From: an uncultured Bacillales bacterium
Lineage (GTDB): Bacteria; Bacillota_I; Bacilli_A; RF39; UBA660
DNA length: 64,000 nucleotides
Direction of reading: 5' to 3'
Assembly (NCBI GenBank): GCA_947648915.1
Contig: CANSPQ010000002.1
Coordinates: 50-64,049, forward strand
In this document: one piece after another, positions 2,143-9,148 of the stretch
How the letters are laid out: every line of letters begins with the position of its first letter
Numbering within the stretch: position 1 is the stretch's first letter
Position numbers and translations under genes: made by a program
Notes under the pieces: generated by a model
Told to the model about the DNA's origin: nothing
Database searches by the model: none
What the model saw: only the letters and a program-made list of their open reading frames with translations

Positions 2143-3411
2143 TTATCTTATCTTTCCTTTTTCTTCTGATAATATCATTCCCAACAACTCTGATTCTGTC
2201 ACTTGGATTACCTTTCCACAACATGGTTTGAAATTTGGATTTCCATAAACAATCCAAATTACATTTTCATTTTTTAAATCTTCTTTGGGCATATTTCCTG
2301 GACCAGGGATTCCATCGGTAAATATAATTTTATTGATTTCTTTTTTTCTTGTGAAAGAACGAACGGCTAAATCCCAGTCTTCTGTCCATGCATACTTATG
2401 TGATTCTTCTGGAATCACAAAATGATCAATATCATCATTTGACTTTATTTCTACCATTTTATAATATTTTTCATTAAAACACCCTACTTTTAATTTGGAA
2501 TGATGTAATATCGGTTTGATTATCCTTAAAAAAGATTTTACTAAATTTAAACTAACTGACCCAGAAACATCAATTAAAACCTCTGTTTCCGCTTCTTCTT
2601 CTAACTCGTCTTCTTCTAATCTATATGCATAATTATTCTCAGCAATGGAACGTCGATTACTCCAAATAATCTCGTCTTTATTGACTTCTCTTCTTAAAAG
2701 AAGTAGCCAATCAATCGCATTATTTTCTTCCCCTATTGTGCCTAATTCATTTTGAATCTTATTTTTTTTCCATTCCTTTAATACTTGTTCTTTTTTCTGC
2801 TTCAAATCTTTTTTGGCTTTTGCAATGCGTTCCTCTCTATTTTCTCTAAATTCTTGTTTTTCATCAATTTTTGTATCTGGCTTTTGAACCTGATCTTCAC
2901 CTGTTTCCATTTTTTCAAAAGCTTCTTTCCAAAGACTATGGTCATCCCTCCAAGTGGATTTTGTATAATCCCCATCCTCATTTAACAATTTTTCATATAA
3001 TTGTTCTGCTGTATAGGATAACGCATCTGGATAAGTAAAATAATCTTCTTCTATCTGAAATCCATCTCTTACCAAATTGGCATTGATGATTGCATCGGTA
3101 GCTTCATTCCATACGTCTAAATCTTTCTTTTTGCCATCCTTTTTTAAACGGTACATATGAAGAAATTGCATATGCATAAGCTCATGCGCCAAGAGAAATA
3201 AACGTCCCTCAAGTTCTAAGCTTACAAAATAATCAGGGTCAATCAAAATCTTTTTTCCATCTGTTGCCCCTGTATGATACTTTAAGTGACGATGATATTC
3301 AATTGGTGTAGCTGCAAGTAAACTTGCAAAACGAGGATAGCGAATCATTAGAATATTTTTTGCTTCATTCATTAAATCCATAGACAACTCTCCTAAAATG
3401 CTACAACACAC
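2143..3411 (-). CDS. VWA-like domain protein with N-terminal putative metallopeptidase domain (DUF2201_N/DUF2201 type), partner of AAA_5 ATPase
   Basis: HExxH motif (LAHELMHMQF) in the N-terminal half. The C-terminal half is VWA-like (LIDVSGS). Last gene of the three-gene operon with the ATPase. Confidence 0.6.
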   Translation of the reverse strand: MCCSILGELSMDLMNEAKNILMIRYPRFASLLAATPIEYHRHLKYHTGATDGKKILIDPDYFVSLELEGRLFLLAHELMHMQFLHMYRLKKDGKKKDLDVWNEATDAIINANLVRDGFQIEEDYFTYPDALSYTAEQLYEKLLNEDGDYTKSTWRDDHSLWKEAFEKMETGEDQVQKPDTKIDEKQEFRENREERIAKAKKDLKQKKEQVLKEWKKNKIQNELGTIGEENNAIDWLLLLRREVNKDEIIWSNRRSIAENNYAYRLEEDELEEEAETEVLIDVSGSVSLNLVKSFLRIIKPILHHSKLKVGCFNEKYYKMVEIKSNDDIDHFVIPEESHKYAWTEDWDLAVRSFTRKKEINKIIFTDGIPGPGNMPKEDLKNENVIWIVYGNPNFKPCCGKVIQVTESELLGMILSEEKGKIR

Positions 3412-3773
3412 AATTGATAAAGATTGGGTGCAATATTTTTTAAAGATTCTTTTGATACTACTGTAAAAACAATAATGACATTGGAAGGAATTGAATACCC
3501 CATAAATTCTCTATCTTTGATGAGTCCAATATATTTTTCTTGTTGCGCCATAGTTAATGTATCTATTCTGCGAATGACAAAATACGTTGTTTTTCCATTG
3601 CTAGAAAGTTGTTCCAATTTGGATTTGAAAATGGGATTTCCATAACGAAACAAATAGGTATCTTCTATACTAGCATCCATATATGCAGTTTGTCCTAAGT
3701 TTTGATACATACAATCCAGTATAATAGCACCAGTCGCACTCCCTCGTTGTAACTCTACTAATTCCTGATTCAT
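3393..3773 (-). CDS. hypothetical small protein (operon member between ATPase and VWA protein)
   Basis: 126-aa ORF. Translationally coupled: ATGA overlap with the upstream ATPase and an overlap with the downstream VWA gene. Confidence 0.4.
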   Translation of the reverse strand: MNQELVELQRGSATGAIILDCMYQNLGQTAYMDASIEDTYLFRYGNPIFKSKLEQLSSNGKTTYFVIRRIDTLTMAQQEKYIGLIKDREFMGYSIPSNVIIVFTVVSKESLKNIAPNLYQLCVVAF

Positions 3774-5530
3774 CTACTTTTTCCAACTCCCTCTATTTGT
3801 CCCTTTTTCAGTTCTAATTGTTGTAATTCACTCATTTTCAACATCCGCATCTCATCATTTCCAACCCATAGTAAATCATATAATTCACGATATTCAGGAT
3901 CACAATATTGCTGAACAAATTCTCTACAAGTACCAACTTGATGCTCATCAGCTAACAACAATGCCACCATAGAAGCATATCGCTCATTAGTGTTTCTTGG
4001 TAAATCTGCTTGGGTATAGGTTTTATTAACGACTTGTTCTATGGTAAGTGTTGGAATATTATAATAATTCAAAAATTCTCTTGCCCAAGATTCACGCAAT
4101 TTGGTTGCGATAGACATTTGTAGTAAATGTTCTACATCTTTGCCCACATATTTGCCTTCCACTAAATTTTTTTCAAAGGCACATAGTGTATGAGAAATGG
4201 ATGTCCACCCTCTTGGATCATTTGTTCTACCACGACAACCATTACGATCTTTATCCCTTTCCCCTACCTCTGGTTCTTCATAAAAGTATCCAATCGAGGA
4301 AATATCTTCTCTTCTTTGATTTTCCATATATTTTGAAACAATATATCCAATCACAGAAGGATGTAACTGATTCGGAATTGCATATTCATAAATCCATTCT
4401 GAAACACGTGGTTCCATATCTAATATATGATCAAATCTCTTTTCTAGTGGTTCTGCTAATTCCTCGGCAACACTAGAATATTTTTGCGGATTTCCAGTTG
4501 CCACAATCACTGTATTTTCTGGCAATTTTAATCCACTTCCCGTTTCTACAATCCGATTCAAAACGAGGGTATAGACAAGTGATTGTACCACTGGTTTTAC
4601 ATTCAAAAGTTCATCTAATAATATTACAATTTTTTCATTACTTGTCTTTGATCTTTCATATATGGTATCCGCAAGGTCATATAAGCTTTGAATATTACTT
4701 GCAACCATTTTCTTTTCTTCTTCCGTCGCACAATTTAAAATCGCTTGCTTGGCAAAATTAGGCGGAATATTTTGACCTGTTTGAAAGTTACTAGAACCAA
4801 CCACCTTCTCAGGAAGCATATTGTTGGTCAATTTGAGATAGATTAAATTTGGATATAATTTACGAATACGCTCTGTCTTTCCAATTCCAGATGGCCCTCT
4901 TAATAGTACGGATTCCCCTGCTTCAATCCAATTTTGAATCATTTCGGTATATGTCATTTTTCTTCTCTCAGATGCGATTGTGGTATCTGGATTGAGATTT
5001 TGAAGTCTTGTTTTACGAATACTGGTATCGGTATCAGGTATCAGGTAATCCACTTTATTTGTCTGTATTTCTTTTGCAAAACAGTTATCCATATATTTTT
5101 TGATATCTGTCTTTGCAAAATCTCCCTTATAATTTCTAATCTGATTGAATTGCACACCTGCAAACAAAATGGTTTTAGGAAGCACAATGTCATTCTTTTT
5201 ATCTACGAACCAACGAACTTTCTCTACTTTCACCCAATATGGTTTCCCGATTTTTATTTTTGCTCCTGTTGAAAGCACCTTTCCCGCCCCATTTTTATCA
5301 CCCAAAAAGCGAATATATCTTTCTTGCATATACTCGTACTCAATAAATTCACGTGCCTGAAAAGGCATGTCATAATCATCATAAGCAACAGAATCTGTTG
5401 TATATTTGTTTCCTGTTTCCTTCATACCAATTTGGTATGTATTTTCCAATTGTCTTGCAAAATTATCTTCCACTGCAGTTTGTGGAAATTCTCCAAAATC
5501 AACTTCAAGAAGTCCACTTGCCCCTCTCAC
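3770..5530 (-). CDS. AAA+ ATPase, AAA_5 (MoxR/McrB-like) family. In frame with the upstream DGR target ORF.
   Basis: Walker A LLRGPSGIGKT. Walker B/sensor ILLDELLNVKP (DEINRAP-like). ATGNPQ arginine-finger region. The assigned start is a GTG with no convincing RBS. Confidence 0.7.
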   Translation of the reverse strand: MRGASGLLEVDFGEFPQTAVEDNFARQLENTYQIGMKETGNKYTTDSVAYDDYDMPFQAREFIEYEYMQERYIRFLGDKNGAGKVLSTGAKIKIGKPYWVKVEKVRWFVDKKNDIVLPKTILFAGVQFNQIRNYKGDFAKTDIKKYMDNCFAKEIQTNKVDYLIPDTDTSIRKTRLQNLNPDTTIASERRKMTYTEMIQNWIEAGESVLLRGPSGIGKTERIRKLYPNLIYLKLTNNMLPEKVVGSSNFQTGQNIPPNFAKQAILNCATEEEKKMVASNIQSLYDLADTIYERSKTSNEKIVILLDELLNVKPVVQSLVYTLVLNRIVETGSGLKLPENTVIVATGNPQKYSSVAEELAEPLEKRFDHILDMEPRVSEWIYEYAIPNQLHPSVIGYIVSKYMENQRREDISSIGYFYEEPEVGERDKDRNGCRGRTNDPRGWTSISHTLCAFEKNLVEGKYVGKDVEHLLQMSIATKLRESWAREFLNYYNIPTLTIEQVVNKTYTQADLPRNTNERYASMVALLLADEHQVGTCREFVQQYCDPEYRELYDLLWVGNDEMRMLKMSELQQLELKKGQIEGVGKSR

Positions 5531-5571
5531 TTCGTTCGAGGAGATGGAAGAGATAGAAGAGTATGGTAAAG

Positions 5572-5645
5572 CTGGACGGGCTCCTACATCCCGTTTCCTA
5601 ACATCATCTTAGTCCTCATAACCGTCATCATTAACGACGCGCGCG
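5572..5645 (-). repeat. DGR variable repeat (VR)
   Basis: 74 bp, 65/74 identical to the TR at 7173-7246. All 9 mismatches are at TR adenines on the minus (RT) strand. The GC-rich 3' end GGAGCCCGTCCAG is identical in both copies (IMH-like). Confidence 0.85.
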
Positions 5646-5854
5646 TCATTATCTCCATCTGAAGTTTTTGTCCACCACCAACCAGTACGGTCTTTTAATG
5701 TACTTCCTTCACTTGTATATGTACTATCTGCTACATAACCACCTAATAAAATAGCAAAATCCGAAATTGCACATTTGGTTCCATACAATTTAAATATATC
5801 TAATTGTTTATCACCAAATATTTGTTCTGTTTCTAAAAAAGTAAAATCTAACAT
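5609..5854 (-). CDS. DGR target protein (81 aa) with C-terminal VR. Its stop codon lies inside the VR.
   Basis: RBS GGTGGTGA 5 nt before the ATG. The C-terminal codons AAT GAT GAC GGT TAT GAG GAC correspond to TR AAT AAA AAC GGT AAT AAG AAC. C-terminal signature GWWWTKT...ARVVN. Confidence 0.7.
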   Translation of the reverse strand: MLDFTFLETEQIFGDKQLDIFKLYGTKCAISDFAILLGGYVADSTYTSEGSTLKDRTGWWWTKTSDGDNDARVVNDDGYED

Positions 5855-5916
5855 AGTAAATCACCACCTATATCATAACATAATTTTGCTCATTGTAGAC
5901 ACCTTTTGTCATTTTT

Positions 5917-7172: not shown

Positions 7173-7246
7173 CTGGACGGGCTCCTACATCCCGTTTTCT
7201 AACATTATTTTAGTTCTTATTACCGTTTTTATTAACGACGCGCGCG
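7173..7246 (-). repeat. DGR template repeat (TR)
   Basis: The adenine-rich copy on the RT strand: ...AAT AAA AAC GGT AAT AAG AAC TAA AAT AAT GTT AGA AAA CGG... Located between the avd-like ORF and the RT. Confidence 0.85.
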
Positions 7247-8023: not shown

Positions 8024-8048
8024 TAAAAAAAAATCACATTTCTGCGAC
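8024..8048 (-). terminator. intrinsic terminator hairpin (GTCGCAGAAATGTGAT + U9) of the TCGCAGAAATGCGA family
   Basis: Stem-loop with G-U wobbles only on the minus-strand RNA, followed by T9. Confidence 0.4.
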
Positions 8049-8113
8049 AATTTTGTTACAGATTTTTAAAATCTGTAAGGTTATTTTTTTCTTTGTAAAA
8101 TAAGGTAAAATCA

Positions 8114-8492: not shown

Positions 8493-8515
8493 AAAAGAAA
8501 ATCGCATTTCTGCGA
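8493..8515 (-). terminator. intrinsic terminator TCGCAGAAATGCGA + U-rich, downstream of the 8516-9148 gene
   Basis: 6-bp stem, GAAA loop, then UUUUCUUUUG. Confidence 0.5.
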
Positions 8516-9148
8516 CTAATTTAGTACCTTTTGTTTTTGATTATCTTTTATTGCACCTGCTATTGTACAATAGCAATTTTTATTACCATTATAGAAAATT
8601 CTAAATAATTGTGATATCATTTGTGGTGAAGAAATACGAGTCGTATGAATCATACCATTTTCAATTGTTTGCTTTTCCGTTATTGTAAAATTTTCAAAAT
8701 CTTGAAGTAAAAATATAAGTTCTGCTAAATAGTTGTCTATCATATTAGAACATATTTTATTAAGTTCTTTCTCTAGATATATACTAGCCTCATTTATAAA
8801 TGTCATTTGAGAAAATTCTTCATCACAACTAGAACAATCCATAACAGGTATTAAAACACTTATTCTTCCTGCTAATCTTATTAATTCTTCACGTTCCAAA
8901 CCAAACAGTTTTTTACACGCATAATTGTTCATTGGTATTTGTTTGGTTTTATAATATTTGGAAAAAATTAGGATAATATTATTTCTTAATTCTGTAATAA
9001 TCTCTGTTTCATTTTTACCAATGACACTTAATGGTTCAATTCCTGGTTGAAATAAACACATATTAACATTTAATTCTGAATTGAGTATTTCTAGTATATT
9101 TTTCAAAATTTTAGTCTGACCTATAACTTGTTCACTTATTTCTGCCAT
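8516..9148 (-). CDS. hypothetical protein
   Basis: 210-aa ORF with no recognisable motifs. Confidence 0.4.
   Translation of the reverse strand: MAEISEQVIGQTKILKNILEILNSELNVNMCLFQPGIEPLSVIGKNETEIITELRNNIILIFSKYYKTKQIPMNNYACKKLFGLEREELIRLAGRISVLIPVMDCSSCDEEFSQMTFINEASIYLEKELNKICSNMIDNYLAELIFLLQDFENFTITEKQTIENGMIHTTRISSPQMISQLFRIFYNGNKNCYCTIAGAIKDNQKQKVLN

Follow-up and report, generated by a model that had tools for sequence, protein, structure and literature searches.

A template-encoded stop codon and ON/OFF alleles in a diversity-generating retroelement of gut Firmicutes

Diversity-generating retroelements (DGRs), such as those of Bordetella phage BPP-1 (Mtd/Brt/Avd) and Treponema (TvpA), harbor a reverse transcriptase (RT), the accessory protein Avd, a template repeat (TR), and a variable repeat (VR) in a target gene. 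DGR biology assumes that templates diversify the target without truncating it, and the placement of adenines in the TR has been described as avoiding nonsense codons, with strong selection (PMC7159879 and PMC10907252 among others). DGRs are also linked to MoxR–vWA conflict systems, the VMAP ternary systems (Kaur et al. 2020, PMC7159879; Dore et al. 2024, PMC10907252). The present analysis concerns a DGR in a 64,000-nucleotide (nt) stretch of DNA (the window) from an uncultured Bacillales bacterium (assembly GCA_947648915.1, contig CANSPQ010000002.1, positions 50 to 64,049), the target gene of which is interrupted by an in-frame TAA that is also present in the TR.

The element is a DGR by its RT, by the adenine bias between its TR and VR, and by its recent activity. 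It departs from the standard DGR in its TR stop, in a VR located toward the N-terminal end of a putatively cytoplasmic AAA+ fusion, and in an avd–TR–RT–target gene order. More than half of the TRs in this gut-Firmicute family encode a stop. In nature, this stop is both transferred to the target and lost from it again, and the interrupted gene is still under purifying selection. These observations contradict a stated design rule of DGRs. In the following, related loci and contigs carry L-numbers, homologous proteins carry P-numbers, and the allele found in the window is termed the window allele.

A stop codon templated by the TR

The two repeats of the window align without gaps (TR 7246..7173, VR 5645..5572), and all nine of their differences fall at TR adenines; the same adenine-directed pattern is found in 24 related pairs. 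Numbering of VR codons begins here at the A of ARVV, so that the window stop is codon 12. In this register, TAA occupies codon 12 of both the TR (7212..7210) and the VR (5611..5609), as an earlier note on this DNA had read, and adenine changes go on beyond the stop (TR AAT AAT GTT AGA versus VR GAT GAT GTT AGG), another observation of that note that holds. The stop in the target is templated by the TR. Among 82 distinct ungapped VRs, stops occur in 7, in every case at the TR-stop codon.

TR/VR pairing was performed across 75 genome loci, 72 metagenome stretches, and 8 contigs retrieved via protein. An in-frame TAA or TGA is present in 12 of the 22 distinct TRs of the gut-Firmicute family, at VR codon 6, 12, or 17. 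Codon 12 is TAA in the TR shared identically by the window and its close relative L001, as well as in L005, L107, and L149, and TGA in L019 and L071; TAA is found at codon 6 in L004, L024, L039, L056, and L150 and at codon 17 in L029. The TR-stop states are scattered over a neighbor-joining tree of the targets and persist within clades of only ~60% protein identity. The TR-encoded stop thus recurs family-wide at three different codons and is not peculiar to the window locus.

As controls, 16 diverse phage DGR loci were chosen by RT similarity and yielded TR/VR pairs from 13, none of which has a TR with a stop within its variable part (Fisher's exact p = 0.0009 for family versus controls; p = 0.01 if the edge case L172, considered below, is counted). 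TR codon usage that avoids nonsense outcomes, a commonly stated DGR property rather than a formal criterion, is not a feature of this family. A literature search for TR-encoded stops or DGR-made premature VR stops found no description, although its coverage was incomplete and an earlier report is possible.

One interrupted gene and its ON and OFF alleles

An 81-amino acid (aa) open reading frame (ORF; 5609..5854, ATG) and a 586-aa ORF (3770..5530, GTG) lie on the minus strand in one frame. The one-frame translation of 5854..3770 comprises 695 codons with a sole internal stop (...GYED*DDVRKRDVGARPALPYSSISSISSNEVRGASG...), the TAA inside the VR, and 26 sense codons lie between this TAA and the GTG. 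Upstream of the ATG at 5854, and separated from it by a 5-nt spacer, lies AGGTGGTGAT, which differs from the complete anti-Shine–Dalgarno (SD) complement by a single mismatch, whereas the sequence upstream of the GTG at 5530 (TCCATCTCCTCGAACGAA) harbors no purine-rich SD. The shared frame, the single intervening stop, and the GTG lacking an SD had all been pointed out in the earlier note, and each is borne out. At 30.7% G+C, the chance of 26 open codons is ~0.12, which is weak evidence taken alone, while that of 602 open codons after the stop is ~4e-22. It is the 602 post-stop codons and the continuous homologues, rather than the 26-codon gap, that place the open frame beyond chance.

Searching with the read-through query gave 1474 homologues. 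Among the best 120, most have a length of 690–740 aa, with a coverage of 98–100%, and the homologues run continuously through the stop column. In 110 homologues, the residues at this column are Y (63), C (12), F (9), S (8), W (6), and L (2), such that 100 of the 110 use residues within the T-N-N codon set. Because the homologues are continuous 690–740-aa proteins, the 81-aa and AAA_5 ORFs are one gene, and the allele present in the window is an interrupted (OFF) one. The evidence supports the native product predicted earlier, i.e., a variable N-terminal domain fused to an AAA_5 ATPase.

An AlphaFold (AF2) model of the closest full-length homologue, P0003, stands in for the window protein. Its mean predicted local distance difference test (pLDDT) score is 76, rising to ~90 over residues 1–270, and its two N-terminal beta modules lead into an AAA+ core and then a helical C-terminal domain. 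Inside the first, confident beta module is the VR, with strands flanking the stop position on both sides, and the stop position precedes the invariant R..GARPAL strand of this module. The ATPase fold has low-Z similarity to McrB, RavA, and RFC. With the DUF6273 (PF19789) profile, no match above the gathering score was found for the VR domain. Of note, in the 962-aa homologue P0002, the whole N-terminal variable module is duplicated in tandem, with a second WYWTK...GARPAL segment before the ATPase.

The sequence past the stop (RPALP to the end, 602 codons) has a ratio of nonsynonymous to synonymous substitution rates (dN/dS) of 0.089 between the window and L001, both of which are OFF, and 0.17 between the window and L005. 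The post-stop sequence is under purifying selection. This result, together with the continuous homologues, agrees with the earlier proposal that the frame beyond the stop is, or periodically becomes, coding.

In lineages with a TR stop, the corresponding VR codon is a stop in nine cases (window TAA, L001 TAG, L155 TAA, L156 TAA, L005 TAA, L154 TAA, L019 TGA, L029 TAA, and L056 TGA) and a sense codon in eight (L152 TTC, L153 TGT, L149 TTA, L004 TGG, L024 TCG, L039 TGC, L150 TTG, and L071 TGT). The 90%-identity protein cluster of the window ATPase likewise contains 586-aa, 81-aa, and 89-aa fragments and one 694-aa protein, P0126. The strain of L001 and L152 has ~95% DNA identity to the window locus and the same TR. 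Over an alignment of 3361 nt, L001 (TAG, OFF) and L152 (TTC, ON) differ at 17 positions, all of which lie within 35 nt of the VR, and the 694-aa ORF of L152 is the continuous allele for which the earlier note had asked. L001 and L155 (TAA, OFF) differ at 18 positions in 846 nt, every one of them in the VR, and five more alleles each have their own distinct VR. Between the window and L001, 11 mismatches fall within 5594..5628, against ~4 per 100 nt elsewhere. ON and OFF alleles therefore exist in an otherwise identical background and differ only by DGR-type changes. Recent mutagenic homing by the DGR is evident from the isogenic contigs, which differ only in the VR, and from the VR hotspot of change that separates the window from L001.

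A phase-variable locus is recognized by ON and OFF alleles at one site, a dedicated mutational mechanism, and their occurrence in one lineage. L001 (TAG), L155 (TAA), and L152 (TTC) present this combination, and the locus is probably phase-variable, with retrohoming as the driver. The same three alleles bear out the toggling put forward in the earlier note, apart from its split form, which is considered below. The mutability claimed there for the TAA is likewise seen in its sense outcomes (TTC in L152), with the correction that TAG and TGA outcomes remain stops, leaving an expected ~55–65% of rewrites OFF.

This figure follows from the substitution rates. TR adenines of the variable part are substituted at a frequency of 45% (24 TR/VR pairs), by G (51%), T (26%), or C (23%), such that the expected probability of keeping the stop per homing event is 0.55–0.65 for TAA and 55–65% for TGA. 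Stops were observed in 5 of 9 cases in a set unbiased by gene calling (genome contigs found via the ATPase part) and in 6 of the 8 distinct alleles in the window species and its sister, both of which are compatible with 55–65%. Because the observed frequencies fit the neutral expectation, there is no sign of stop alleles being purged, nor of their being favored.

The VRs of the family display several further irregularities. Occasional TR-to-VR differences fall outside adenines (GGT to GGG in L001 at 2546, GGA to GTA in the low-coverage L155 at ~594, and GGT to GTT in L153 at ~4909). The VR of L036 (1–70), a relative of L019 with its own TR off the contig, contains TGA at codon 12, TAA at codon 14, and TGA at codon 17; one of these matches the L019 TR stop, and the other two are located at AAA codons of the L019 TR. 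Single-nucleotide indels, mostly at TR adenine runs, shift the frame of the VR in L005 (6210–6290), L156 (1230–1310), L066 (6209–6293), L052 (5167–5273), and L009 (2704–2790), in L005 and L156 on top of a retained TAA.

Two loci, L153 (4806–5001; GCA_948579045.1, from the species of the window) and L119, have the post-avd sequence fused to a repeat copy and the ATPase. The repeat copy carries the downstream flank of the VR, and the RT gene and the first ~70 target codons are gone; the fused repeat is mutagenized in L153 (codon 12 TGT) and an unmutated TR copy in L119. The structure looks like the outcome of TR–VR recombination or aberrant homing that deleted the cassette; it may alternatively be an assembly artifact. 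Many Clostridia loci encode two tandem paralogous targets. Their two VRs, ~3.0–3.1 kb apart in L006, L007, L097, and L137, are identical in these four loci and different in L008, L010, L012, and L093. Gene conversion, a recent duplication, or collapse during assembly could account for the identical pairs.

Proposed mechanism and alternative explanations

On the basis of these findings, the locus is best read, with a probability of roughly 85%, as a DGR-diversified single gene with a TR-templated stop that re-draws ON or OFF at each homing event, the window carrying an OFF allele. The target would be a cytoplasmic protein of ~694 aa, in which the neighboring DGR diversifies a DUF6273-like N-terminal ligand-binding module that is joined to a MoxR/McrB-type AAA_5 ATPase, with a 126-aa protein and a DUF2201 (VWA-like) partner encoded downstream. 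Mutagenic retrohoming would overwrite the VR with complementary DNA, rendering codon 12 T-N-N. This codon is predicted to stay TAA, TAG, or TGA in ~55–65% of events and to become Tyr, Phe, Trp, Cys, Ser, or Leu in the remainder, opening the full ORF, and every event would re-draw the binding site and the ON/OFF state together. OFF alleles are expected to yield no functional protein, because the domain is truncated, the GTG has no ribosome-binding site (RBS), and the downstream genes are coupled through an ATGA overlap; expression of these coupled genes is probably lowered as well. The module itself may be a cytoplasmic sensor or remodeler of the MoxR–vWA conflict-system type, as inferred from its domains.

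Several points weigh against this reading of the locus. The AAA_5 and Avd assignments both depend on weak profile scores (26.9 bits for AAA_5, against a cut-off of 22). The control set is small (13 phage DGRs), and one of its members, L172, has a TR stop at the far 3′ edge of its repeat. The sequences are without exception metagenome consensus assemblies, and several loci were found via called proteins, which biases the ON/OFF counts; these loci are excluded from the 5/9 figure. The TRs of L154–L156 were inferred from relatives, as their contigs contain no TR. In addition, stop frequencies that equal the neutral expectation are equally consistent with harmless null alleles.

The edge case L172 is the Butyrivibrio phage Closwp03 (PQ069210.1; TR ~4713–4823), which reads ...NYGLA*T in the TR and ...NYGLALT in the VR; its stop may belong to the initiation of mutagenic homing (IMH) region and not to the mutagenized part. 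Assembly error was also considered as the source of the stop and ruled out, since independent assemblies carry different stop alleles.

On another reading, the two ORFs are two working genes, with an 81-aa product and a separately initiated 586-aa ATPase acting jointly or on their own, which would make the split form named in the earlier note an alternative functional state. Gene calling in several assemblies does yield 81-aa and 586-aa proteins, and the GTG is close to the boundary of the two N-terminal modules. However, this GTG has no SD in a low-GC Firmicute genome and is an ordinary linker Val codon; a large Clostridia clade has no GTG and instead has TNGESGKRAR. The 81-aa fragment stops short of the invariant R..GARPAL segment of its domain, and coding conservation extends through the 26 codons from the stop to the GTG. 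Two-gene calls are absent among homologues whose VR is free of stops, and the shorter calls occur only in lineages with a VR stop or frameshift (L001, L005, L154) or with the TR–VR deletion (L153). A functional split form is thus improbable, and the state so described is better read as OFF, the fragment being cut before the GARPAL strand and the GTG lacking an RBS.

Ordinary mutational decay, in which the DGR and its target are pseudogenizing, could be suggested by the many disrupted VRs of the family and by the loss of the RT and target 5′ end in L153 and L119. It is nevertheless very unlikely, given a dN/dS of 0.09–0.17 after the stop, 602 codons still open at 30.7% G+C, an RT, Avd, and ATPase that are intact across loci, TR/VR mismatches that are nearly all at adenines, and VR alleles that turn over in an isogenic background. 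A pseudogene was rejected on the post-stop dN/dS. Even less credence is given to TAA being decoded as sense or bypassed at the site, in favor of which no point was found. Of the 43 long open frames of the window, 22 end in TAA, the RT gene among them, making it the most frequent terminator; TAG and TGA likewise serve as stops there, and all three are interchangeable among the alleles at the site. TAA is not known to be reassigned in bacteria. Stop-codon recoding was rejected on the stop usage of the window.

The remaining alternative addresses why the stop exists and not its effect. Switching would be real, while the TR stop would be a merely tolerated by-product and not a selected switch, a view that deserves serious consideration at not far below an even chance. 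T-A-A is the sole adenine-rich codon able to give Tyr, Phe, and Trp (as well as Cys, Ser, and Leu), such that a site that prefers aromatics could afford ~60% null alleles if the gene is mostly dispensable. Consistent with this logic, 100 of the 110 homologues have an aromatic or T-N-N-coded residue at codon 12, sister clades have TAC or TGG at codon 12, and stop frequencies are equal to the neutral expectation. The persistence of frameshifted VRs (L005, L156, L066, L052, and L009) and of an AAA-to-TAG stop in L045 suggests that null alleles are generally tolerated. In contrast, TR stops are also located at codons 6 and 17, where the homologues mostly have D, E, K, or N, and TGA at codon 12 (L019 and L071) gives only Cys, Trp, or stop, which is scant diversity for ~55% nulls. 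Moreover, a single substitution would give the stop-free TAC, which neighboring clades use, yet TAA is kept across ~60%-identity divergence, and published work describes strong selection on TRs against nonsense codons.

The least certain part of the proposed mechanism is that the TR stop is kept as a selected default-OFF latch, making the DGR both the diversifier and the phase-variation engine of an intracellular AAA+ sensor/effector and being selected family-wide. This is offered tentatively, as a possibility of appreciably less than even odds. The module would then be silent in most cells, a random minority would express a new specificity, selection (e.g., by phage or another invader) would amplify useful ON variants, and later homing would restore OFF. 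Such a system would resemble a bet-hedging immune-receptor repertoire with built-in allelic silencing. In its favor, TR stops are found at three codons, two of which are non-aromatic positions.

Locus organization and comparison with known systems

The minus strand encodes, in order, an Avd-like gene, the TR, the RT, the 81-aa ORF, the AAA_5 ORF, a 126-aa ORF, and a DUF2201_N gene (Table 1).

Table 1. Features of the DGR locus, in window coordinates.
Feature	Position	Strand	Basis or remark
Avd-like accessory gene, 194 aa	7326..7910	-	PF22296 bAvd E 2.2e-5; NF033474 DivGenRetAVD E 1.3e-6
Template repeat (TR), 74 nt	7173..7246	-	VR-frame reading ARVVNKNGNKN*NNVRKRDVGARP; TAA at 7212..7210
DGR reverse transcriptase, 351 aa	5917..6972	-	RVT_1 E 1.7e-17; GNQSSQ motif
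Shine–Dalgarno AGGTGGTGAT for ATG at 5854	5860..5869	-	direct sequence reading
Single DGR target gene, 694 codons, TAA-interrupted in the window	3770..5854	-	read-through translation, homologues, ON allele P0126/L152
Variable repeat (VR), target codons 71–95	5572..5645	-	TR/VR alignment
TR-templated in-frame TAA, VR codon 12	5609..5611	-	marks the window allele as OFF
Conserved 126-aa ORF	3393..3773	-	ATG overlaps ATPase TGA (ATGA)
DUF2201_N protein, 422 aa	2143..3411	-	PF13203 E 7.6e-22; PF09967 VWA-like E 0.12 over whole profile

Translated searches (tblastn) match the RT to phage DGR RTs, BPP-1 Brt among them, and the SQ dipeptide in its motif is a hallmark of DGR RTs (PMC3521204). Both profile scores of the Avd-like gene are below the curated cut-offs; its position is conserved, with a ~195-aa gene there in related loci. 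The Avd domain covers residues ~75–185 only and is preceded by a ~70-aa N-terminal extension, the size of which is kept in relatives (protein of 195 aa in L149 and 194 aa in L153). A 35-nt direct repeat (AAAAnAAAATCnCATTTCTGCGAC...) at 8025–8059 and 8493–8527, 468 nt apart, is located upstream of the avd-like gene and may be a regulatory or terminator-like element.

The target is laid out as two DUF6273-like N-terminal beta modules followed by the AAA_5 ATPase and a helical C-terminal domain. The overlap between it and the 126-aa ORF is an arrangement usual for translational coupling. A gene of the same size is found 3′ of the target in L149–L154, and profile searches (including PADLOC and NCBIfam) gave no family match for this ORF. 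The DUF2201_N protein has a putative metallopeptidase-like N-terminus and, more weakly, a VWA-like C-terminus, both by profile similarity. Proteins of this family are the usual partners of MoxR-type ATPases. The avd–TR–RT–target–~128 aa–DUF2201_N operon is kept in related gut metagenome-assembled genomes, beside ordinary housekeeping genes. As the viral-contig scan returned only one locus, which is irrelevant, the system is chromosomal and not phage-borne. PADLOC and NCBIfam scans gave no system-level assignment and a single weak DolB match.

The consequences extend to annotation. Gene callers break these targets up, reporting an 81-aa ORF and, separately, an "ATPase", such that the variable domain is overlooked, and DGR survey pipelines that need an intact target ORF or drop stop-bearing TRs will miss such systems. 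With regard to function, the locus would be a natural case of one mechanism driving both hypermutation and ON/OFF phase variation, and the affected module would be of a cytoplasmic AAA+/vWA type proposed to act in conflict or defense.

With canonical DGRs, the locus shares the RT, TR, and VR, a putative Avd (by the sub-cut-off scores), as well as adenine-specific TR-to-VR differences (9/9), a constant 3′ repeat end, and variable codons that are mostly AAY. In contrast to published TRs, which are described as avoiding nonsense, the TR encodes an in-frame stop, and the gene order is avd–TR–RT–target. Whereas the canonical VR is C-terminal in a surface or tail protein, it spans codons 71–95 of a 694-aa, putatively cytoplasmic protein here. 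The VR domain of the present target would be DUF6273-like, by resemblance below the gathering score, rather than a recognized C-type lectin domain of the Mtd/TvpA kind.

The VMAP ternary systems share the coupling of a DGR to an AAA+ ATPase, here putatively MoxR-like, and to a vWA-type partner, here a candidate with a vWA-like match of E 0.12, a target that is probably cytoplasmic, and a variable domain proposed as a sensor. However, their variable FGS/CLec domain is usually carried by the vWA protein or a STAND NTPase rather than by the ATPase N-terminus, and their hosts are cyanobacteria or gammaproteobacteria of multicellular habit rather than gut Bacilli and Clostridia. The VMAP protein present in those systems was not found in general profile scans of this locus, which included no VMAP model. 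Their TRs are reported to avoid stops (PMC7159879, PMC10907252), unlike the TR described here.

The DUF6273 DGR targets of gut phages (e.g., the Faecalibacterium phages FP_Brigit and FP_Toutatis) share the VR signature WW(L/T)(R/K)(S/T)...G(A/I/V)RPAL at the domain end. They differ in being virion proteins with TRs that have no in-frame stop.

Phase-variable contingency loci (i.e., slipped-strand repeats, invertons, and intragenic inversions) resemble this locus in that a programmed local mutation repeatedly makes and removes a premature stop and that ON and OFF alleles coexist in one lineage. In contrast to these loci, the mechanism here is templated retrohoming, and OFF is the template-encoded default. 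Each switch also randomizes ~13 other codons, and the ON states never repeat.

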